Shown here one piece after another: positions 774-47,832 of a stretch of DNA of 64,000 bases; the first letter of the stretch is position 1, and each line of letters begins with the position of its first letter. This DNA is from a bacterium. GTDB lineage: Bacteria; Patescibacteriota; Patescibacteriia; Patescibacteriales; UBA12075. The DNA lies in assembly GCA_043820875.1 (NCBI GenBank), contig JBDRDI010000021.1, positions 91-64,090 of the forward strand, given 5' to 3'. A program made the position numbers and the translations under genes. Below the pieces are notes generated by a model that ran no database searches, had not been told where the DNA came from, and saw only the letters and a list, made by a program, of their open reading frames with translations.

Positions 774-1616
774 CTACTCCATGAAAGGATTGTTCAAGTT
801 CGGGTCGTCTTCCGGCCCGGAAATGATAATAATTGACTTCCTGCCTTTGACTTTTTTGCCTTCAGCAGTAAAGTAACCATTGTCTTCCTCGTACTGTTCA
901 AACTCTGATCTTGATCCAGTCATGTACGGGTTGTACAGATTCGGGTCATCATCATCCACGCGATAGGTGTCCTCTTCAGGAAAACTTTCTCGCTGTGGCT
1001 CAACAACGCTTTTGGCCTCTTCGGACGCAAGCTTTTCAGCCGGCGTCTCAACGGGCTTTGGCGTATTGATGGCAACCACCTCGGATAAGCACTGACGGAT
1101 AAAAATGTCAGCTTTTATTCCTTGTTGAATTGCCATGTGAAACCTCCCACTTTCACGAAGAGGTTTGTAATTGTTCCATTTAAATCCGTGAGAATAATCC
1201 TTCACGGTCATTATGTGTTGCTTTTCATCACCCACGGTGTGGACGGAATATTGATACAACTTTCCGTCATCCGCTCGGGATCCGAAATAACCTTTTCTAT
1301 TCGGATTTATTTTGTCGCCTTTGTACGCGACAACGAACCACCAGGCGTCATGAGCGTAACACCGTATCCCGTCTATGTATTCGTCGGAATACTCGTTATC
1401 GCCATGTCGGTCTGGCTCCAGATACAAACGATGACGCGCGCCGCGGCTTTCCCTCTCAACCAAACTGCTCGGTAGTCTTGAGGTAAAAACCTGGTACGAA
1501 TCACTGTTCAAGGTGAACGGTAAAGTCGTGGCTTCTCTGGCAGTCATGCTCGAGGCACAGCCGCCAAGTAAGCCACTAAGCAGCAGCATTCCTATTAACA
1601 CGACGAACCTCGGCAT
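774..1616 (-). CDS. lipoprotein of unknown function with C-terminal DDPNLxNP(Y/F)M repeats
   Basis: Start chosen at the internal ATG 1616 (MPRFVVLIGMLLLSGLLGGC lipobox), preceded by GGAGAGG SD. The track ORF 774..1688 extends further upstream without an SD. GC-rich codon usage unlike the rest of the window. Confidence 0.55.
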   Translation of the reverse strand: MPRFVVLIGMLLLSGLLGGCASSMTAREATTLPFTLNSDSYQVFTSRLPSSLVERESRGARHRLYLEPDRHGDNEYSDEYIDGIRCYAHDAWWFVVAYKGDKINPNRKGYFGSRADDGKLYQYSVHTVGDEKQHIMTVKDYSHGFKWNNYKPLRESGRFHMAIQQGIKADIFIRQCLSEVVAINTPKPVETPAEKLASEEAKSVVEPQRESFPEEDTYRVDDDDPNLYNPYMTGSRSEFEQYEEDNGYFTAEGKKVKGRKSIIIISGPEDDPNLNNPFME

Positions 1617-2688
1617 TTTTGCCTCTCCTTTCCAGCCTTCCTTCGGGAAAGCAGATAAAGTGTTCCACGACTTCTTCGGCGTTGACAAAAATTTCCGGCA
1701 TTCCTGGACACTCTCGAAGGTGCCTTCGGAACAAATTCTTTCCGAAAATATTCACTTTCGCCTGACCATTGTTGCAAACCGGGCACGACAGAGCCGCGTT
1801 GTAAAACGGACTCAAAACTTCCGTGCCATCTGTTGTCCGAAGCTTCCCTCTGATACTGACGGAAAGCTTGAACAGCGTCGCGAAATCCCGCGGCCAGTAT
1901 CCGGACTCCGAATCCCAGCTCACTTTGTTTCGCTTTCGCCAAGAAGCAATCGTCTCCACTTCGCGTCCTTTGTCCAAGGACGTCTGTATCGCGGTTCCGT
2001 TCTTCAGTCTTCTTTCAAAAACTTCAGGTACCGAACTCGCAACAGGTTGGGACGACGCTACTTTGCGTGGCACTATCTCCCGCACGTAAGAAATCTTCTG
2101 CTTTTCTTCAGCCGGTTTTGCTTCGCCTTTGACGGCAACCGCTTTACTCAGCTTGGTAATCGCACAATCATTCTTCGGCGGAGAAATTTTCCCGCTTCTA
2201 CCGATTGGTGGTGGTGGAGAAGGAAATATTGCAGGTCTTTGGAATTTGTTTTTCACTCCTTCCTCAGACTCAAAAATTACCTCAACTACCGGCTCGTCAC
2301 CTGCTGAATCAACAGCTGCTTCGAGCTCTTCAGCGCTAATATCTTCGTCAACGAGAAGCGAACTGTCCAACTCTTGCAATTCGTCTACCCTCAATGCTCT
2401 CGCGTTTTTGGCGCGAATTGATGAAGGCGATGTAGCTTCCTGAGCTTTTCTTGCTCGATATTCAGCCTCTTCCCTCCTCGTTTCTTCTTTCCTTCCGTCT
2501 TCAAACTCTCTATACTGCGTCTGAAGCTCCAAAAAATTTTCAAACTCACGAAACGCTTTTCCGTTTTCCTCTGCGCGATTGTAATTCAGACGGCGGTTTA
2601 TTCTTTCCTGCCTTTGCCGAGCAATCTCGACACTGTCGGCATCCCCTCTTTTGAAAACGCTCGTAATCGCTTCCATAATTCCTTTCAT
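1576..2688 (-). CDS. hypothetical protein, Glu/Arg-rich coiled-coil N-terminus and C-terminal Cys-rich (CPVCNNG...HLRECPG) zinc-ribbon-like region
   Basis: Start at ATG 2688 (MKGIMEAIT...) with AGGAGG SD 5-7 nt upstream. The track ORF starts earlier at 2754 without an SD. Overlaps the downstream lipoprotein gene by 41 nt. GC-rich. Confidence 0.5.
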   Translation of the reverse strand: MKGIMEAITSVFKRGDADSVEIARQRQERINRRLNYNRAEENGKAFREFENFLELQTQYREFEDGRKEETRREEAEYRARKAQEATSPSSIRAKNARALRVDELQELDSSLLVDEDISAEELEAAVDSAGDEPVVEVIFESEEGVKNKFQRPAIFPSPPPPIGRSGKISPPKNDCAITKLSKAVAVKGEAKPAEEKQKISYVREIVPRKVASSQPVASSVPEVFERRLKNGTAIQTSLDKGREVETIASWRKRNKVSWDSESGYWPRDFATLFKLSVSIRGKLRTTDGTEVLSPFYNAALSCPVCNNGQAKVNIFGKNLFRRHLRECPGMPEIFVNAEEVVEHFICFPEGRLERRGKNAEVRRVNRNAAA

Positions 2689-3052
2689 TGCTCTCCTCCT
2701 TCGTCTTAGCTTTTGAATTCTGGTTAGAGTTATCGTCTTGCTTGAAGCAAACACGATACGTCTTTTCCAGATTCATCATGCTAAAGCGAAGTGCTAAAAC
2801 AAAAAGAAGAAAGGAAAAGTCGTTGTGTAATTTTGGTTTATTTGGAATAAACCAATGCTTCGCGCAAGAAGAAGTTTTTTGTCGCAAGTCGCTACTCTGA
2901 CAAAAGGGTCCATAGCCTCGTTTATAATACAATCAAACTTAACTTATAGTTCATTCAATTGTCAAAGAGCCCTTTAGAATCTTCTGCTTGCATTAAGCGA
3001 AAGATCTGAACAGCACCCACGGGGGTAAGCCCGGGGGTGTCATCCAAATCAA

Positions 3053-3928
3053 TTACCTCAATACATTTTTTATATCTCCGTTGCGCAAAATATTTTGATA
3101 CACGGTTTGATATTCGCTATTTCCGGAAATATTTGAAAATTCTTGCTTTTCGGAATATTCTTTTTGTTCTTCGTTATCATGACCATTATCACGATATTCA
3201 TCATTCTGCATTTGAGAATTCACGGCTTGAAAAACAGGCGCGGCCACGCTTAAATCTTCGTCGAAATTTATTTTCGCTAAACGATCCTTTTTATTTGGTA
3301 AAAATTTAATATCGTATTTTTTTTCCGGATAAAGGTAGATGTAGCAAAGGCCGATGATCAGCCCGAAAATAGCACCCAAAGACAAATTCAAAATCACGTT
3401 CGGTTTGACCGGAAAATCAGAAGTAGTCGGTTGGTCAAGAATTTTGACGTCCAATCGATTGTTTGAACTATGATAATTTCCGTGCTTGGTTTTCAGAGTA
3501 TAGTTAATGCCTTGTACGATTTGTTCGGCTTGGTATTTATCTTTATGATAAACGGCTATCTCAATAATACCGGTGTCATTAATTGCTTTGGACTCCACGG
3601 TTTCGTCCCATTTTTTCATCTGCTTTTTAATATCACCTGAAAAATAATTTTTATTAATGCTATAACCGGAATCCATTACTTCGTTATAAAAAGAGTTGGA
3701 AGGAATAATTCTGGTCAATATTTCCCCTAAATACTCATTTGACTTGGCCATGGCGTATGGGTCCACTCCTTCTACGAAGTTTTGAACTATCATCAGACGA
3801 GTTTCTGTCGCATATTTAAACGGCTGGATAACCGTTAAAACGATAGACAGCGAAAGAAACACAATAACCACGGAAAGTATGGTCTGCTTCTTCTCTGTAA
3901 TTAGTTTTATAAATTCTCTTATTTCCAT
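3053..3928 (-). CDS. Wzz/chain-length-determinant-like polysaccharide biosynthesis protein (two TM segments)
   Basis: N-terminal TM (ILSVVIVFLSLSIVLTVI), a long periplasmic-type middle region, and a C-terminal Pro-containing stretch followed by a Gly-rich TM (PTTSDFPVKPNVILNLSLGAIFGLIIGL) typical of the Wzz/Cap5A family. Confidence 0.5.
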   Translation of the reverse strand: MEIREFIKLITEKKQTILSVVIVFLSLSIVLTVIQPFKYATETRLMIVQNFVEGVDPYAMAKSNEYLGEILTRIIPSNSFYNEVMDSGYSINKNYFSGDIKKQMKKWDETVESKAINDTGIIEIAVYHKDKYQAEQIVQGINYTLKTKHGNYHSSNNRLDVKILDQPTTSDFPVKPNVILNLSLGAIFGLIIGLCYIYLYPEKKYDIKFLPNKKDRLAKINFDEDLSVAAPVFQAVNSQMQNDEYRDNGHDNEEQKEYSEKQEFSNISGNSEYQTVYQNILRNGDIKNVLR

Positions 3929-4871: not shown

Positions 4872-7115
4872 ATGTCTCATAAAATAGCACAACTTGTCTT
4901 AACCCCAAATAAGCCCGGATCCACCGGTGAAATTTTTATTGCCCAACCTGACTCGGATATTGAGGCGCTTGCTGGTAAACTTTTTATTCTGGCCGAAATT
5001 GACTCCGGTAAAAATGCCAGTTTGAAAATAATTAATTTTTTAATAAACAGCGCCTACCGTAATTATTATCAAAACGAAAAAATAATTTTAAGAGAAAAAA
5101 TAAGCACTCTGAAGGTGGAGCATATTTTTGAAGCGGCTCTTACAAAAACCAATAAAAACTTTGCCGATTTTCTCGAAGAAGAAAAAATAAAAATTGATTT
5201 AAGCTCTCTGAATATCACGGTAGGAATAATCTATGAAGACGAACTGCACTTCTCCACCATGGGAAAAAATAAAGTGTTGCTTATTTATAAAAATAAAGGG
5301 GAGGAAAAAATAAGAAATGGGCAAAAAATAATATCCGGAAGCGAATATAAAGTTTCCGATATAGCAAAACGTTCCGACGCCAGCGAACCAAACGGAACTG
5401 AAGACAAACTTTTCGCCAATGTAATCAGCGGAAAAATTCCCAAAAAAGGCAACTTCGTTATTGCCAACGAGGCTCTTCCTGAATACATAGGAAATAAACA
5501 ACTTATCAATATCATCACCACCCTGCCCCCGAAAAGCGCGACCGAACAAATAAAAAATATTCTTTCCGGCATCAATTCTTATGTTTCTTTCTTTTTGATT
5601 ATAATAAAAAATTCCGAGCTGGAAACGGAGATCCCGCGCGAAACAAACATACGCAAAACGCAAGAATCCATCGTGCACCTTAATCAAACTGAAGAAACGG
5701 CCGAAAATCTTCTGGCTCCTTCCGGCATAATCAATCTCAAAAAAATGTCAGCTATTAAACAATTATGGGAGAGAAAAAGACCCGGAACCGAAAAAATCCT
5801 CATGTTTAAAGATAAAATAATCGCCCAAAAAAGAGGCCGACAAATATTCATTAAGACTGGGGAGGCAATAAGAATTTTCTTCATCTATTTATTTAATATT
5901 ATTTTTTATATATTGAAAACGATAACCAGTAAACAAAAATTAATAGATATTTTTTTCAATATTATTTACGGCGTAAAAAATTTCTTTATCTATGTAAAAA
6001 ATTTAAATAAAAAAAGTAGAATTCTTTTTGTGGTGGCAGCCACACTTTTGGTCTTGTTCTTTATTAATGTTTTGGTAATTAAAAATAGAAATAAAAAAAT
6101 AGCTGAAGAACAAAACTATTCCGACATTATCACCGATATTAAGCAGAAACAAAATCAAATAGACGCCAAACTGATTTATACTGACGATGAAGGAGCCTTG
6201 AAGCTGGCCAAGGAAAACGAGGATGTAATAAAAAATTTGCCCCAAGACGACGAAGAACAAAAAGAAAATTATAATAAATTTATAGAAAGTCTTAGTCGTC
6301 AATTGGAAAAAATAAGAAAAGTGGAACGAGTTGACGATCTTGAAAAAATGGCGAATTTAAACGCTTCAACCAATCCTCAAAATTTAATTTTTGCAAATGA
6401 TAAAATATATGTGGCGGATTCCAGCCAAAAATCAATATACATTTTGTCTGTTGCCGACAAATCAACAACCGTTTTTACTGATTCGCAGACGTCCATAACA
6501 AAATTTCAATCTCCATTTCTCTTAAATGACAATATTTATTATTACAACAACACGAACTTGCTGGAATTTGATACGGATAATCAAAAACTGAATACTATCT
6601 CTCTCAAAATCACAAATCCGGAAGATACGGCCGTCGTTAATATTTATAATAGCAATTTATATATTGTGGATAAAAAAGAAAATCAAATATATAAATTCGG
6701 AAAAATCGCGGGTGGTTTTGGCGCCGGTTCTGAGTGGCTCAAAGAAAATGCGGAAATTTCCAAAACAACAGACATGACCATTGACGGCAATATTTATATT
6801 TTGAAAAATAACGGCGAACTTTTAAAATTTTTGAAAGGCATGCAAGTTGACTTTAAATTAGATACAGTTGATCCGGAACTCAAAAATGCGACCAAATTAT
6901 ACATATCATCCGACGGCGACTCCATCTACGTCCTTGAACCTGCAAATAACCGCATCTTGGTTTTTGACAAAAAAGAAAATGAAAACGAAGGAAAATTCGT
7001 TTTACAATACTCTTCAAACAAATTCACGGATTTGAAAGACTTTACTGTGGATGAAAAAAATAAAATTATTTACATACTGAACGGCACTTCTGTCTACAAA
7101 TTGGAAATAAAATAA
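4872..7115 (+). CDS. large hypothetical membrane protein; central TM segments, C-terminal repeated beta-strand-rich (propeller-like) region
   Basis: 747-aa ORF with several hydrophobic helices around residues 330-400. The C-terminal half has repeated NxxYIL/IYIxD-type motifs. It ends at a strong bidirectional terminator. Confidence 0.6.
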   Translation: MSHKIAQLVLTPNKPGSTGEIFIAQPDSDIEALAGKLFILAEIDSGKNASLKIINFLINSAYRNYYQNEKIILREKISTLKVEHIFEAALTKTNKNFADFLEEEKIKIDLSSLNITVGIIYEDELHFSTMGKNKVLLIYKNKGEEKIRNGQKIISGSEYKVSDIAKRSDASEPNGTEDKLFANVISGKIPKKGNFVIANEALPEYIGNKQLINIITTLPPKSATEQIKNILSGINSYVSFFLIIIKNSELETEIPRETNIRKTQESIVHLNQTEETAENLLAPSGIINLKKMSAIKQLWERKRPGTEKILMFKDKIIAQKRGRQIFIKTGEAIRIFFIYLFNIIFYILKTITSKQKLIDIFFNIIYGVKNFFIYVKNLNKKSRILFVVAATLLVLFFINVLVIKNRNKKIAEEQNYSDIITDIKQKQNQIDAKLIYTDDEGALKLAKENEDVIKNLPQDDEEQKENYNKFIESLSRQLEKIRKVERVDDLEKMANLNASTNPQNLIFANDKIYVADSSQKSIYILSVADKSTTVFTDSQTSITKFQSPFLLNDNIYYYNNTNLLEFDTDNQKLNTISLKITNPEDTAVVNIYNSNLYIVDKKENQIYKFGKIAGGFGAGSEWLKENAEISKTTDMTIDGNIYILKNNGELLKFLKGMQVDFKLDTVDPELKNATKLYISSDGDSIYVLEPANNRILVFDKKENENEGKFVLQYSSNKFTDLKDFTVDEKNKIIYILNGTSVYKLEIK

Positions 7116-7123
7116 ATTCAAAT

Positions 7124-7187
7124 AAAAAATCCGCATTTTTGTAGAGACAGGTTTCAAACCTGTCTCTACAAAAATGCGGATTTTTTA
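7124..7187. terminator. bidirectional intrinsic terminator between convergent genes
   Basis: About 30-bp perfect inverted repeat aaaaaatccgcatttttgtagagacaggttt / aaacctgtctctacaaaaatgcggatttttt, with an A-tract on one side and a T-tract on the other. Confidence 0.85.
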
Positions 7188-7211
7188 TTTCTTGTAAATA
7201 CGAAACGACTT

Positions 7212-7616
7212 TTATTTCAAAGTCACTTTTCCACCGGCTTCTTCCAATTGCTTCTTAACATCTTCGGCATCTTCTTTCTTCAAGCCTTCTTTAATCATCT
7301 TTGGAGCGGCATCAACCAAATCTTTGGCATCTTTCAACCCCATTTCAGTAATGGCTCGCACAACTTTAATCACCGCGATTTTGTTCGCGCCTGCTTCAGT
7401 CAATTCCACATCAAAGCTGGTTTTTTCTTCAACCGCTTCGGTGGCAACACCAGGCATGGCACCCATCATCATGGCCGGAGCGGCTGCTGAAACTCCGAAT
7501 TTTTCTTCCAAAATTTTTACCAATTCAGCCAAGTCCAAAACTGACATTTTTTCAACTTCGGAAACGAGTGACTGAAATTTTTCAGGAACCTCTACTTCTT
7601 TTTTTTCTTCTGTCAT
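7212..7616 (-). CDS. rplL: 50S ribosomal protein L7/L12
   Basis: MTEEKKEV...[22 protein letters not shown]...[30 protein letters not shown], the classic L7/L12 sequence. Confidence 0.95.
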
Positions 7617-7764
7617 AACTTTTTATAAGATGCAAATCTACAAATGATATTCAAATCTACAAATAAAAAATTTTGTAAATTTGCGTGCATTTGTAAATTG
7701 GCATTATGTTTGTAAATTAATATTATATTTTATTTGTAGATTTGCATGCATTCGTAGATTCGCA
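7617..7764 (-). promoter_or_regulatory. rplJ-rplL spacer containing a family of 10-nt repeats TTTGTA(A/G)ATT in both orientations and a perfect TATAAT hexamer (minus strand)
   Basis: tttgtaaatt appears 3 times, tttgtagatt/ttcgtagatt twice, and the inverse aatctacaaa twice within 148 nt. On the minus strand ...caaatctacaaataaaaTATAATat. Confidence 0.35.
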
Positions 7765-8286
7765 TTATCTTTTTTCAATCGCTTTCAAAACGTTAACCAA
7801 ACCGCGCAAATTGCCAGTTAAACAATTTACAAACCCCGAAACAGGAGAATTGAGCGAACCGACCAGCTTTGCATAAAGCTCTTTTTTGCTTGGTAATTTT
7901 GACAGGCTATCCACTTCTTTTTCGGAAATAAATTTATTTTCCAATATTCCACCCGCAAAACTGATTTTTTCTTCGTGGTCTTTCTTGAATTTTCCGACAA
8001 TTTTTGCCGGCATAACTTCGTCGCCAAAACCAAAAATCGCCGCGATACGGCCTTCCAAATCTTTGATATTTAAATCTTTAATATTCGAATCTTTAAAAGA
8101 CAAATCAAATAATGTTTTTTTGGCAACATAATATTCGCTATTTTCAGCTTTGAGCTGTTTGCGAAGCTCCTCATTCTCTTTCACAGTCAGACCGTCAAAT
8201 TTCGCAAAAACAATTGAATTGGCTTTCTTGATTTTTTCTGATAGACTTCTTAATATTTCGCTTTTTTGTATTTTGGTTTTCGGCAT
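7765..8286 (-). CDS. rplJ: 50S ribosomal protein L10
   Basis: MPKTKIQKSEILRSLSEKIKKANSIVFAKFDGLTVKENEELRKQLK..., an L10 family sequence, immediately upstream of rplL. Confidence 0.9.
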   Translation of the reverse strand: MPKTKIQKSEILRSLSEKIKKANSIVFAKFDGLTVKENEELRKQLKAENSEYYVAKKTLFDLSFKDSNIKDLNIKDLEGRIAAIFGFGDEVMPAKIVGKFKKDHEEKISFAGGILENKFISEKEVDSLSKLPSKKELYAKLVGSLNSPVSGFVNCLTGNLRGLVNVLKAIEKR

Positions 8287-42254: not shown

Positions 42255-42461
42255 TCAGCGCAAACAGCTCCTTACCGCTTTAATGCTATCGGCAAGGGCA
42301 CGTTCCTTTTCTTCCTTAACGACGACACTCCATTCTCGAAAAAAAATGTGGTCGCCGGAATATAGCTCATAAAAAACAGCAAAAACGATTTCCTTGGCCA
42401 GGTCATCAAGTTTCTTTCCCTGCTTATATTCCGAAAGTTCACTCAGCAATGACATCACCAT
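42255..42461 (-). CDS. hypothetical protein (68 aa)
   Basis: Overlaps the upstream 171-aa ORF by 7 nt (atggtga). No motif recognised. Confidence 0.4.
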   Translation of the reverse strand: MVMSLLSELSEYKQGKKLDDLAKEIVFAVFYELYSGDHIFFREWSVVVKEEKERALADSIKAVRSCLR

Positions 42462-42970
42462 CCTCCTTCCGCAGAGCAGAACACTCGACTGTCCTCATAC
42501 CATTCGTATGAATCTTTAACAGAACGAACGCTTATACGCCAACCGCCGTATTTTTGATCAACGATCACCGGACAAAGAATCCCTTTGTTGTTGAGAATAT
42601 AAAATATATTTGCGCTCCAGAGAGAAAGCGCGCCTTCTTCCAAGTTGGGCTGTTTTTTCAAAACGCCCCACAATTCAGGAAGGGTGGTTCTTACTTTTTT
42701 CTCTCCGCCGAGTTTAGCAATAATCAAACCGTCTTTAGATGGCTCCCACAATTCTCCGTATGAAAGCATCATTCTTGATCGATTGTCATTATCGGGAAAC
42801 TGCGACAAAAAACCATCTTCCAAACAAGAAATCTTTACTTCTGCCCCGTCCTCTACAAAATATACATCATCTGCGAACGACGACATATTTGGAGAAATTT
42901 CCACTTCGGCAAGAAATAAAAATAACGGATCAATTTCTCTAGCTCTGGACTCCGAAACGGCTCTTGGCAT
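42455..42970 (-). CDS. hypothetical protein (171 aa)
   Basis: ORF downstream of mrdA on the same strand. No motif recognised. Slightly higher GC. Confidence 0.45.
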   Translation of the reverse strand: MPRAVSESRAREIDPLFLFLAEVEISPNMSSFADDVYFVEDGAEVKISCLEDGFLSQFPDNDNRSRMMLSYGELWEPSKDGLIIAKLGGEKKVRTTLPELWGVLKKQPNLEEGALSLWSANIFYILNNKGILCPVIVDQKYGGWRISVRSVKDSYEWYEDSRVFCSAEGGW

Positions 42971-43082: not shown

Positions 43083-43186
43083 TGTTAATTCTCAACCGCT
43101 TTCTTGTATTCCCCAAAATACCAAGTCAAAAATTCTCTGGCCACTGGCACGGCGTTAATGTTCCCCTCCCCCTTCTCCGATTAAAA
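43083..43186 (-). pseudogene. duplicated remnant of the mrdA 3' end (left direct repeat of the cassette)
   Basis: 43083..43156 is about 96% identical (3 mismatches in 74 nt) to 45827..45900. The minus-strand translation gives ...NAVPVAREFLTWYFGEYKKAVEN*, against the real PBP2 C-terminus ...NAVPVAREFLTWYFGEYKKAVDD*. It has no start codon. Confidence 0.8.
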
Positions 43187-43220: not shown

Positions 43221-43249
43221 TTGACAAAACAGATATGGAAGTGTAAGAT
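43221..43249 (+). promoter_or_regulatory. sigma70-like promoter for the radical SAM gene
   Basis: TTGACA, a 17-nt spacer, then TAAGAT, about 60 nt upstream of the ATG. Confidence 0.5.
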
Positions 43250-43308
43250 TTTAAAAAATAAAATAAAAATCGTTCATTAACAATAAAACATAAAAGGAAA
43301 TATTGAAA

Positions 43309-44703
43309 ATGAATAAACAATATTCGATTAATCTAAGAGTCGGCTGGAGATATATTGATTCCGAAATAGTTACATTTAATTGTGCAAATCAAGAAATTGC
43401 CATTTGGAATGAGACAGCTTCTTTTTTGTGGAAAAAAATATACGAAGGCGCGACCAATCTTGATGATTTAGTAAGGCTTTTTGCCGATGAATATTCTATT
43501 GACAAAAAAATGGCAAAACGAGATATCACCGTTTTTCTTCAAGAAGCTGTTTCTCTTGATTTTATTAATTATCCAGATAACAAGCTGGAATTAAAATCAA
43601 AAGACCAAAACGACGATGGCGGAGAAAATGTTTTATTAGCCATCGAAATGAAAGCTATTGAAAAATTTATTCCTTTCGCCATAACTTTTGAAACGACTTA
43701 TTCTTGCAACGAAAAATGTGTTCATTGCTATATGGATCGTAATAAACATTCTCTTTCGTTCAACGAAGTTAAGAGAATTCTTGACGAAATCGCGGCCGAA
43801 GGTTGCTTGTTTGTCTCTTTTACCGGCGGGGAATTTTTTACTCGCGACGACGCTATGGAAATTGTGGAGTACGCCGACAAATTACATTTTGTTGTTGATA
43901 TTCTTAGCAACGGCACTCTAGTTACCGAGGACAAGGCAAACATGCTCGCACTACGTTCCGTAAGACGCGTTCAAGTAAGTCTTTACGGAGCAACCCCTGA
44001 GACACACGACTCAATTACTCGTTTATCTGGTTCGTTTAAAAAGACCTTGCAAGGTATAAATTTTTTAACCAAGGCGGGAATAAAAGTAGAAATTGCTTTT
44101 CCGCTAATGCAAATAAACTTTCATGAACGCTATCTCTTGAAAGATCTTGCCAAATCTTTAGGTTGTTTAATGTCGCCGAGTCATGTTATCACCGCTCGTA
44201 ATAGCGGGGAACAAGATACTTTTTCTTTCCGATTGAACGATGAGCAGCTAAAATTGTTTTTAGAAGATAAAGATTTATCCTCTCTTTATGCGGGACGTAA
44301 ACCATTTCAAGATCATCAATTTTATTTTGGATTTTCTGATTTAACAAGCGCTGCCCCTTGTTATAGCGGGTTTAACAGTTGTGCAATTACGCCTTCGGGC
44401 GAAGTTTTACCTTGCAATCAGCTTCTTTATAAAGTCGGCGATTTGAGGGAAAAAAACTTTTCGGGAATTTGGAACAACTCCCCACAAATTAAACATCTTC
44501 GTAATTTAACTATCGGGAATCTTCCGATATGCTCCAGTTGCCCGACTTTGTCATTTTGCGCTCGTTGTCCGGGGCTAGCCCTATTGGAAGGAGGTGATCT
44601 CTTGGGGCCATCGCCGGAGAACTGTCGAATAACAACAACCTTTGTTTCAGGGAAAGGAGGTGAAATTCATGAAAAGGAAAAACTACATTCCGCCTCGCGC
44701 TAG
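43309..44703 (+). CDS. radical SAM/SPASM-domain peptide-modifying enzyme with N-terminal PqqD-like RiPP recognition element
   Basis: N-terminal IAIWNETASFLWKKIYEGATNLDDLVRLFADEYSIDKKMAKRDITVFLQEAVSLDFI, a PqqD/RRE pattern. CNEKCVHC is the CxxxCxxC rSAM cluster. The C-terminal Cys-rich SPASM (CYSGFNSC...LPCNQ...CSSCPTLSFCARCPG). Start at ATG 43309 with AAGGAAA SD (the track starts at TTG 43303). Confidence 0.75.
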   Translation: MNKQYSINLRVGWRYIDSEIVTFNCANQEIAIWNETASFLWKKIYEGATNLDDLVRLFADEYSIDKKMAKRDITVFLQEAVSLDFINYPDNKLELKSKDQNDDGGENVLLAIEMKAIEKFIPFAITFETTYSCNEKCVHCYMDRNKHSLSFNEVKRILDEIAAEGCLFVSFTGGEFFTRDDAMEIVEYADKLHFVVDILSNGTLVTEDKANMLALRSVRRVQVSLYGATPETHDSITRLSGSFKKTLQGINFLTKAGIKVEIAFPLMQINFHERYLLKDLAKSLGCLMSPSHVITARNSGEQDTFSFRLNDEQLKLFLEDKDLSSLYAGRKPFQDHQFYFGFSDLTSAAPCYSGFNSCAITPSGEVLPCNQLLYKVGDLREKNFSGIWNNSPQIKHLRNLTIGNLPICSSCPTLSFCARCPGLALLEGGDLLGPSPENCRITTTFVSGKGGEIHEKEKLHSASR

Positions 44704-44704
44704 G

Positions 44705-44788
44705 ATGAAAGGCAATACAAAGTTGCTGATCATAGCAGCCATCCACAAAGGATGCACTTCATCCTCGTCCAGGGTTAAGAAGGGTTAA
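44705..44788 (+). CDS. 27-aa peptide ORF translationally coupled to the rSAM stop (speculative)
   Basis: gcTAGgATG arrangement. MKGNTKLLIIAAIHKGCTSSSSRVKKG. No proper SD. Confidence 0.15.
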   Translation: MKGNTKLLIIAAIHKGCTSSSSRVKKG

Positions 44789-44800
44789 TACCGATTATCC

Positions 44801-44840
44801 GCCCTGTCCAAATCTAACAATTTGGGCAGGGCTTTTCTAT
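44801..44840. terminator. intrinsic terminator between the convergent rSAM and transglutaminase-like genes
   Basis: gccctgtccaaat-ctaacaa-tttgggcagggc (13-bp stem with one G.U), followed by TTTTCT. Confidence 0.75.
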
Positions 44841-45754
44841 ATCAACTCAATATTGTTTTCAAACTTAATATTTTTCAAAGAAGCAAACACGATCGGTTGC
44901 AAAGTCTGAACCGAATTATTAGTCAAGGGTAAACCAAGTTTATTCCAATAGTTAATTTGAAAATTTTTGGGTATAACTGGTTTTAAAAAAATATTAAATC
45001 CATTTATAAAAACTATCCTGTAATCTCTCCTTTGAGCAAAATATTTTTCTCGCTTTTTTCCATTTTCCAAAGACGCATATTGCGTGTCAAAATCCAGCCA
45101 GCCAAAAGAATTAAAATACGCGCTTGCCCAGCCGTGCTCGGCAATCTTTTTTTGTTTTGGAAAAATAACAAAACCGGTATTGTTCCTAGCAGGTATCTTT
45201 AAAATTCTGCACATCGCCACAAATAAACTTGAGTATTCTCCGCAATCGCCCTCGGGCTCAGTCAAATCTAAATGCTTCACACCTCTTTGCTTAACGGGAT
45301 AACAATATCTGAAATTTTTTACAATAAAATTAAAAACGGATTGAACATTGTCTAAAATAGGATTATCGTCGTTAATTATTTTTCTAGTTAACTTTTTCAG
45401 CGCAGGAGTCTGCTCTAAAAATTTTTCATTTTTAATATATTGTTGAAACGATTTGGCAAAATACATTGGTGATAAAAAATTTTCTTTTTTCAAATCAATT
45501 TTATTTTTCCAAATAGTCGCCTTAATATTCATTTCTATGTTAATATTTTTTTCGTTTTTGAATTCAAAATACAAAATTTTATTTCCTTTATCGTCTTTAT
45601 AATATTTCGATGGTGCTGGCAAAATTGAAAAAGATTCTACTTTTTGCGTTATAGAATTTAAAGGTTGGGCTACCCAAACTTTTACAATATTATTATCTGA
45701 ACTTTTTAAAACAGCTCTGTATCTGATATGAAATTTTTTAGGAGAGTAAGTCAT
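44837..45754 (-). CDS. transglutaminase-like cysteine peptidase family protein
   Basis: GDCGEYSSLFVAMCRILKIPAR (catalytic Cys), EHGWASAY (His), GWLDFD (Asp), the transglutaminase-core triad arrangement. 305 aa. Confidence 0.65.
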   Translation of the reverse strand: MTYSPKKFHIRYRAVLKSSDNNIVKVWVAQPLNSITQKVESFSILPAPSKYYKDDKGNKILYFEFKNEKNINIEMNIKATIWKNKIDLKKENFLSPMYFAKSFQQYIKNEKFLEQTPALKKLTRKIINDDNPILDNVQSVFNFIVKNFRYCYPVKQRGVKHLDLTEPEGDCGEYSSLFVAMCRILKIPARNNTGFVIFPKQKKIAEHGWASAYFNSFGWLDFDTQYASLENGKKREKYFAQRRDYRIVFINGFNIFLKPVIPKNFQINYWNKLGLPLTNNSVQTLQPIVFASLKNIKFENNIELI

Positions 45755-45828
45755 ATTTTACAAAAATTTATTTTAATAAATTAACTAACATAAATATACA
45801 ATAAAACAATCACACAATCAATAGAGTG

Positions 45829-47832
<2,004 letters not shown>

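Follow-up and report, generated by a model that had tools for sequence, protein, structure and literature searches.

Radical S-adenosylmethionine (SAM) maturases acting on RiPPs (peptides that are synthesized ribosomally and then modified post-translationally) include the SkfB/SkfA and CteB/SCIFF-type systems, in which an N-terminal RiPP recognition element (RRE) is fused to a radical SAM core and a C-terminal iron–sulfur domain, and a short Cys-containing precursor is encoded beside the enzyme. SkfB makes a single Cys thioether, and auxiliary cluster I of CteB has an open site that binds the substrate Cys. In lasso peptide pathways, discrete RREs recognize the motif [Y/W]xxPx[L/V/I/F/A] (PMC13381572), and RRE-dependent transglutaminase-like cysteine proteases are known leader peptidases (PMC10885120). 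The linear polyphosphorylated peptides (LPPs) of Bacillota are non-lasso RiPPs that reuse a YxxP leader and a lasso-like RRE (PMC13381572). Here we analyse a three-gene cassette from a bacterium of the Patescibacteriota that encodes an RRE–radical SAM–SPASM enzyme, a 39-residue peptide and a transglutaminase-fold Cys-His-Asp enzyme. It lies within a 64,000-nucleotide stretch (the window) of contig JBDRDI010000021.1 in GenBank assembly GCA_043820875.1, and all window coordinates are counted from the first letter of that stretch.

We consider it probable that these three genes form a self-contained RiPP-type cassette, in which the peptide leader would dock on the RRE, the radical SAM enzyme would introduce one Cys-centred modification and the transglutaminase-fold enzyme would trim the product. 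Judged by its sequence, the cassette is an uncharacterized RRE-dependent radical SAM/SPASM peptide system, with no NCBIfam model that claims the enzyme and no Pfam or NCBIfam model for the peptide. It departs from the SkfB and CteB systems in having one substrate Cys, an extra SPASM cysteine (C358) that CteB lacks, a transglutaminase-fold partner in place of the usual protease/ABC exporter, and a distribution within Patescibacteria only. The resemblance to lasso pathways extends to an RRE most similar to the B1 proteins TbiB1, TfuB1 and 9x90_B, a leader with a YxxP motif and a near-invariant downstream Thr, and a Cys-His-Asp transglutaminase-fold enzyme as the sole other protein of the module; unlike lasso clusters, the cassette has no cyclase, and its RRE is fused to a radical SAM enzyme. 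LPP pathways, found in a different phylum, use kinases and a signal-peptidase-like protease, with neither a radical SAM enzyme nor a transglutaminase.

A precursor peptide gene beside the radical SAM gene

The initial annotation of this DNA described an orphan enzyme with no convincing precursor open reading frame (ORF), whose substrate might be encoded elsewhere or be a protein, and named a 27-residue ORF at 44705..44788 as the only candidate. That ORF is the C-terminal two thirds of a 39-residue ORF, read from the wrong start codon. The full frame (44669..44788; translation MKRKNYIPPRARMKGNTKLLIIAAIHKGCTSSSSRVKKG) has its true start at the ATG at 44669, not at 44705, and overlaps the 3′ end of the radical SAM gene by 35 nucleotides in a different frame. 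A peptide ORF stands directly after the radical SAM gene in 18/18 distinct related loci that have sequence there, so the enzyme is no orphan. The cassette is laid out in the window as follows.

43221..43249, plus strand: predicted sigma-70-like promoter of the radical SAM–peptide unit, TTGACA-17-TAAGAT (consensus scan, upstream alignment)
43309..44703, plus strand: RRE–radical SAM–SPASM enzyme, 464 residues (Pfam, alignment of 26 homologues, AlphaFold, Foldseek, RRE profile)
44653..44662, plus strand: Shine–Dalgarno sequence of the peptide gene, AAAGGAGGTG, within the 3′ end of the radical SAM gene, 6 nucleotides before the ATG
44669..44788, plus strand: precursor peptide gene, 39 residues (conserved ORF, homologues, codon-position signature, alignments)
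44801..44832, plus strand: intrinsic terminator hairpin with a 13-base-pair stem and T tract, between the convergent units (predicted fold)
44837..45754, minus strand: transglutaminase-fold Cys-His-Asp enzyme, 305 residues, Bact_transglu_N and Transglut_core domains (Pfam, alignment, AlphaFold)
45793..45821, minus strand: predicted sigma-70-like promoter of the transglutaminase gene, TTGATT-17-TATATT, inside the insert (consensus scan)

The two enzyme genes are therefore convergent, an arrangement that the initial annotation did not mention, with the strong hairpin between them predicted to fold at −22.7 kcal/mol (z = −6 against shuffled sequences). An alignment of upstream regions places the TTGACAAAA −35 box upstream of the radical SAM gene in other loci as well. 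An in-frame TTG precedes this gene at 43303; the NCBI protein (P0001) begins at the ATG at 43309.

Several lines of evidence bear on whether the small ORF is a gene. Gene callers had annotated an ORF of 39–40 residues right after the radical SAM gene in three homologous loci, and these translations align with that of the window. A six-frame motif scan recovered the ORF wherever a close locus had sequence past the radical SAM gene; it also occurs in six further loci, including those of the most divergent enzymes (45–51% identity), whereas the scan of about 150 loci from distant radical SAM relatives did not turn it up once. In 12 of 13 loci the 25 nucleotides before the start hold a GGAG-containing Shine–Dalgarno sequence, mostly AAAGGAGG(T). 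Pairwise differences across the last 24 codons are distributed over codon positions 1/2/3 as 590/284/1211, a clear coding signature; third-position changes exceed second-position changes about 4 to 1. These comparisons show the 39-residue ORF to be a genuine gene that looks translated and is without exception inherited together with both enzymes.

Searching 5.8 billion proteins with a profile gave 35 peptide homologues of 34–55 residues, all named 'hypothetical protein' or unnamed. When 1.84 billion cluster representatives were scanned exhaustively with a hidden Markov model, no more than about nine true peptide clusters emerged, all of 34–42 residues. Scans of Pfam and NCBIfam yielded no family model for the peptide. 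In the alignment of 35 sequences P9, H26, K27 and C29 are invariant, and conservation reaches 90% or more at Y6, G15, T17, A24, S31, K37, K38 and G39; three extra members from the exhaustive scan include one with Asn for H26 and one with Arg for K27. The core follows the pattern HKGC-x-S-(S/T)-x-x-(R/K)-x-KKG, which in the window reads H26-K27-G-C29-x-S31...R35-x-K37-K38-G39, and the distance from the Cys to KKG is constant in all but one of the aligned peptides. C29 is the single Cys of the peptide, which also contains a hydrophobic stretch, LLIIAAI, and carries a net charge of about +11 from 11 Lys/Arg and no acidic residues.

The peptide profile also matched some long repeat proteins weakly (P0279, 152 residues; P0280, 752 residues; P0282, 317 residues). 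We discarded these as tandem repeats such as (GNHKGCPYVSSRTEQ)n; they are probably translated tandem DNA repeats, that is, spurious ORFs unrelated to the peptide family.

The peptide ORF (34–41 residues) is present yet uncalled in most assemblies, as at loci L004, L166, L167 and L168–L171. Because gene callers skip it, automated tools for biosynthetic gene clusters would report no precursor, and clusters of this kind routinely receive the label 'orphan'.

The two enzymes and the leader

The initial annotation read the radical SAM enzyme as a PqqD-like RRE joined to a CxxxCxxC core and a Cys-rich SPASM domain, and profile searches bear this out. Pfam places PqqD at residues 26–88 (37.7 bits against 23.4), Radical_SAM at residues 130–269 (72 bits) and SPASM at residues 353–414 (43 bits against 21.5), all above the gathering score. 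The RRE corresponds to residues 1–95 (43309–43593), the CxxxCxxC motif to residues 133–140 (43705–43728) and the span of SPASM cysteines to residues 351–439 (44359–44625). In the alignment of 26 homologues the SAM-cluster motif C133-x3-C137-x2-C140 is invariant, and the seven-Cys SPASM motif (C351, C369, C408, C411, C417, C420 and C439) is conserved. An eighth conserved SPASM cysteine, C358 (44380–44382), falls between the first two canonical ones, at a position occupied by Leu in CteB and Met in PqqE.

The AlphaFold model of the enzyme (mean predicted local distance difference test score, pLDDT, 88.6) comprises a β3–α3 N-terminal domain, a linker, a radical SAM barrel and a SPASM domain. Its top full-length matches in Foldseek are the three-domain RiPP maturases SuiB, CteB, SkfB and TigE, at 16–18% identity to the best of them, and the closest solved relative by sequence is SkfB (profile E value of 3e-22). 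With a genuine RRE and these fold matches, the earlier proposal of a RiPP maturase gains support: the SAM motif, the SPASM domain, the RRE and the co-encoded peptide together place the enzyme in the class of RRE-dependent radical SAM/SPASM RiPP maturases.

No named family claims it. Among 63 NCBIfam families matched, every model stays below its cut-off. AhbD (148.8 bits against 500), NirJ2 (137.9 against 500), MftC (131.7 against 265) and ScmE (118 against 400) score highest, PqqE reaches 83.7 bits against 381, and the curated sactisynthase models AlbA (97.5 against 850), StsB (84 against 625) and SkfB (68.6 against 300) fall short likewise. The best-scoring stretch of AhbD covers model positions 2–170 of 339 only, and MftC aligns over positions 11–331 of 339. 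The initial annotation had named a sulfatase-maturase-type or cofactor-biosynthesis enzyme lacking an RRE as the outcome that would overturn its view; the RRE is present, and AhbD, NirJ, MftC and PqqE all score below their equivalog or family cut-offs. Some homologues (P0026, P0028 and P0037) are named 'AdoMet-dependent heme synthase' in the Joint Genome Institute (JGI) annotation, a label that on sequence comparison is an over-annotation from partial AhbD similarity.

The RRE and the peptide appear to match one another. A profile of the N-terminal 100 residues of the enzyme matched only four PDB chains, three of them lasso RREs: TbiB1 (E value of 2.8e-9, end to end), 9x90_B ('lasso peptide biosynthesis PqqD family chaperone') and TfuB1. 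The fourth, 9x8z_B, is an unnamed PqqD family protein. The peptides carry the motif Y6-x-x-P9-x-(A/I/V/T), with A at the last position in the window, which matches the lasso-type RRE recognition motif; the Tyr is present in at least 90% of members and the Pro in all. The YxxP motif together with the lasso-B1-like RRE suggests that the N-terminal third of the peptide is the leader. Lasso leaders carry a penultimate Thr (Thr −2; PMC10368454), and the near-invariant T17 of the peptide recalls this residue.

The partner protein was also correctly recognized at the outset as a transglutaminase-fold Cys-His-Asp enzyme: Transglut_core scores 61 bits against 23 in Pfam, and the catalytic triad is encoded at 45242–45244 (Cys171), 45134–45136 (His207) and 45086–45088 (Asp223). 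Across 32 homologues His207 and Asp223 are invariant and Cys171 is present in at least 90%; all 32 match PF01841 and 17 of them also match PF08379 (Bact_transglu_N). The AlphaFold model (pLDDT 91.6) finds its best fold match in 3isr (template modelling (TM) score 0.67–0.71, E value of 8e-17), which is also detected by sequence at an E value of 6.7e-6 and 13% identity. This Cytophaga hutchinsonii 'putative cysteine protease' has the same two-domain fold of Bact_transglu_N and Transglut_core; as an entry from structural genomics that lacks an assigned function, it is uninformative about mechanism. Inspection of the N-terminal sequence revealed no signal peptide. The family numbers 122 proteins of about 300 residues, from Patescibacteria wherever the source names an organism, and many members lie on contigs equal in size to those of the radical SAM matches.

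A proposed pathway and its competitors

We propose the following route. A single promoter would drive the radical SAM gene and, through the strong ribosome-binding site in its 3′ end, the peptide. The lasso-B1-type RRE of the enzyme would bind the Y-x-x-P-x-(A/I/V) motif of the leader, and the radical SAM core would abstract a hydrogen atom within HKGC-x-S-(S/T)-x-x-(R/K)-x-KKG and install one modification centred on Cys29, most likely a single intramolecular thioether ring of the sactionine or ranthionine type onto the invariant C-terminal segment, for which SkfB and CteB are precedents. The cytoplasmic transglutaminase-fold enzyme, expressed from its own promoter, would then remove the leader, by analogy with the lasso B2 protease. 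The lasso transglutaminase-like proteases provide the precedent for this trimming role. We hypothesize that cleavage would follow K18; in lasso leaders the distance from the motif Pro to the Thr is 12 residues, and because T17 comes only 8 residues after P9, the site is a guess.

Several points weigh against this pathway, among them that difference in spacing. We infer thioether formation only from related enzymes and from the presence of one invariant Cys, and auxiliary cluster I may be fully Cys-ligated, unlike the substrate-Cys site of CteB: because C358 stands where CteB has Leu, a CteB-style open cluster site is possibly absent. The role of the transglutaminase-fold enzyme as leader protease is likewise inferred. 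The lasso B2 family (Transglut_core3, PF13471, MEROPS C96) is a different one from PF08379 plus PF01841, and PF13471 matches 1 of the 32 homologues only, at an E value of 0.19; in one homologue Trp replaces the catalytic Cys, and the best fold match, 3isr, is itself uncharacterized. The transglutaminase gene is also transcribed separately and convergently, as judged from its predicted promoter, and the module includes neither an exporter nor an immunity gene, the missing exporter counting against the proposal.

We regard it as unlikely that the radical SAM enzyme instead oxidizes Cys29/Ser31 to formylglycine in the manner of an anaerobic sulfatase-maturating enzyme (anSME), or makes another change short of a cross-link such as epimerization. 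The core S31-x-[S/A/T/G]-x-[R/K] recalls the sulfatase motif (C/S)-x-(P/A)-x-R, but the match is loose, and the Cys, not Ser31, is strictly invariant. The auxiliary clusters of anSMEs are fully ligated, a state that the eight conserved SPASM cysteines, C358 included, resemble, and the core and SPASM domains of the model overlay well on anSMEcpe (TM score 0.68, root-mean-square deviation of about 5 Å). The best full-length fold matches are nevertheless cross-linking RiPP maturases, and anSME models are absent among the best 25 of the 63 matched NCBIfam families. anSMEs have no RRE and take sulfatases as their substrates, so this class does not describe an enzyme that has one and whose candidate substrate is only loosely sulfatase-like.

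Also improbable in our estimation is that the peptide serves as a scaffold sacrificed in making a small molecule or cofactor, on the model of pyrroloquinoline quinone (PQQ) and mycofactocin; the radical SAM enzyme would then cross-link or oxidize residues near the C terminus and the Cys protease would excise the modified fragment. In MftA and PqqA the reaction site is the C-terminal region, and here invariance extends to the last residues, KKG; the module has a peptidase and no exporter; and the best partial matches in NCBIfam include models of the MftC, PqqE and AhbD type. Their scores lie far under cut-off, however, and no further tailoring genes (MftD/F, PqqB/C) are co-inherited. Mycofactocin and PQQ peptides carry a C-terminal GVY or E-x3-Y, whereas the cassette peptide ends in KKG and has in its core no Tyr and no conserved Glu, and a patchy, mobile module of lower GC content than its surroundings is unlike core cofactor pathways.

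It is very improbable that the small ORF is incidental and that the substrate is a protein or a distant peptide, possibly the transglutaminase-like protein itself. The omission of the ORF by gene callers in most assemblies and its overlap with the radical SAM gene in the window would fit such an account, but the ORF holds the same position in every locus, with its Shine–Dalgarno sequence and codon-position signature, its leader motif fits the type of RRE fused to the enzyme, and nothing else is co-inherited. A heme synthase of the AhbD/NirJ type, and with it a cofactor-biosynthesis role of that sort, can be dismissed almost outright, since AhbD, although the best NCBIfam match and the source of the JGI names, scores 149 bits against 500 with a best stretch in the N-terminal half of the model only, and the enzyme carries an RRE, is accompanied by a peptide of its own and has RiPP maturases as its top matches in the fold search.

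Under the RiPP reading, the cassette would graft a lasso-type leader/RRE pair onto radical SAM chemistry. It would offer a compact, testable system for RiPP enzymology, with one enzyme, one 39-residue substrate and one putative protease, and the widespread and functionally obscure Bact_transglu_N/Transglut_core proteins would gain a concrete candidate substrate.

Distribution and movement of the cassette

The pairing of the two enzyme genes, which the initial annotation had proposed checking by co-occurrence, is retained across loci with differing neighbours. A convergent transglutaminase gene lies directly past the peptide gene in 17/17 loci with enough sequence to show it; L010, which breaks off right behind the peptide gene, was excluded from this count. 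No other gene is common to at least three of 11 loci within 6 kb either side of the module, and neighbouring genes differ in the remaining loci examined as well. No lasso cyclase (asparagine-synthetase-like C protein) occurs in the module, and none is common to the flanks of the 11 loci. As far as databases show, the cassette is restricted to Patescibacteria.

Extra genes near the module were seen at three loci, none of them kept across loci. L168 has a second radical SAM/SPASM gene, a ThiF-like gene and two major facilitator superfamily (MFS) transporter genes (1-125, 1230-3348 and 6902-8125), an MFS gene lies immediately upstream of the transglutaminase gene in L166 (7572-8819), and L170 has another radical SAM gene in an adjacent cassette (4885-6303).

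A separate unnamed family of full-length relatives, 33–38% identical to the radical SAM enzyme, occurs in Acidobacteriota, Rokubacteria and others, at L012 and about 150 more loci (L012-L085 and L090-L165). These distant loci carry neither the peptide nor the transglutaminase gene; at L012, the one examined in detail, a discrete PqqD gene (4926..5258) lies upstream of the radical SAM gene (5262..6437). We rejected these relatives as a route to a named family, as they too are unnamed and lack both partner genes. An origin in a known defence system or phage found no support: PADLOC and PHROGs scans of the module and neighbouring orphan ORFs returned only generic radical SAM-core matches, which in PADLOC were to viperin models, with nothing for the transglutaminase. 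A transglutaminase profile scan of IMG/VR viral contigs found no relatives, and a literature search found no paper specific to the family in the library it covered.

In 7 of 18 distinct loci (the window, L003, L007, L008, L167, L170 and L171) the module is flanked by direct repeats of a local target, 36–144 nucleotides long and 84–100% identical. The repeats enclose 2.6–2.9 kb that hold the module alone, with a repeat-to-repeat spacing of 2.68–3.08 kb. The duplicated target is the 3′ end of a gene or a terminator/promoter, and its sequence is different in every locus; no core is common to the repeats between loci, save a promoter piece shared by L170 and L171. Third copies in L003 and L170 bracket a second, unrelated cassette. 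The copies are positioned as follows.

Window, 43083..43186, minus strand: left repeat, a displaced pseudo-copy derived from the final ~35 codons of the penicillin-binding protein 2 (PBP2) gene (repeat search, translation, blastn)
Window, 45827..45932, minus strand: right repeat, where the PBP2 gene has its true, functional 3′ end (repeat search, translation, blastn)
L003: 5742-5830, 8491-8552 and 9411-9499
L007: 1511-1561 and 4476-4526
L008: 4674-4783 and 7460-7525
L167: 4575-4717 and 7650-7784
L170: 896-996, 3585-3685 and 4684-4782
L171: 3831-3927 and 6514-6609

The repeat pair in the window measures 104 nucleotides and is 92% identical over 95 nucleotides by blastn; the left copy translates to ...GEGNINAVPVAREFLTWYFGEYKKAVEN* following an in-frame stop. 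The GC content of the module is 34.6%, against 38–39% in the flanks. Together with the conserved gene order, these features indicate that the three-gene unit is co-inherited and moves as a block. The module contains no recombinase, and target-site duplications made by transposons are far shorter than these repeats. We rejected an integron-like or att-site element, given that the repeats are unalike between loci (except for the piece in L170 and L171) and no recombinase lies in the module, and we rejected the template and variable repeats of a diversity-generating retroelement, as the mismatches show no specificity for adenine and a reverse transcriptase is absent. The long target duplications pose a separate puzzle on DNA movement in Patescibacteria.

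Because the module is accessory and moves horizontally, a competitive, signalling or host-interaction role is likelier than a housekeeping one; conservation of a mobile three-gene cassette suggests a function worth its cost. We put forward only tentatively, as a possible but doubtful reading, the wider proposal that the cassette defines a new RiPP class, in which a short polycationic peptide would receive one Cys-centred radical SAM modification of an unseen type and undergo processing by a Bact_transglu_N-type enzyme, a kind that had no earlier link to RiPPs. It would then be the first radical SAM RiPP family specific to episymbiotic Patescibacteria, and it may also spread by an undescribed insertion route that duplicates 36–144 nucleotides of a target gene end or intergenic terminator and sometimes stacks cassettes.

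The surroundings of the module in the window are nearly all minus-strand housekeeping genes: mreB-mreC-(mreD)-PBP2 borders it on one side and, on the opposite side, hrcA-grpE-hsp20-dnaK; the PBP2 gene (45829..47832, minus strand) was identified by Pfam Transpeptidase and PBP_dimer. Two orphan ORFs on the minus strand, of 171 residues (42455..42970) and 68 residues (42255..42461), lie between hrcA and the left repeat. Neither has a match in Pfam, PADLOC or PHROGs, and the 171-residue ORF has none in NCBIfam. Immediately past the left repeat copy is a strong promoter-like site, TTGACA-17-TATGAT, at 43081-43053 on the minus strand.

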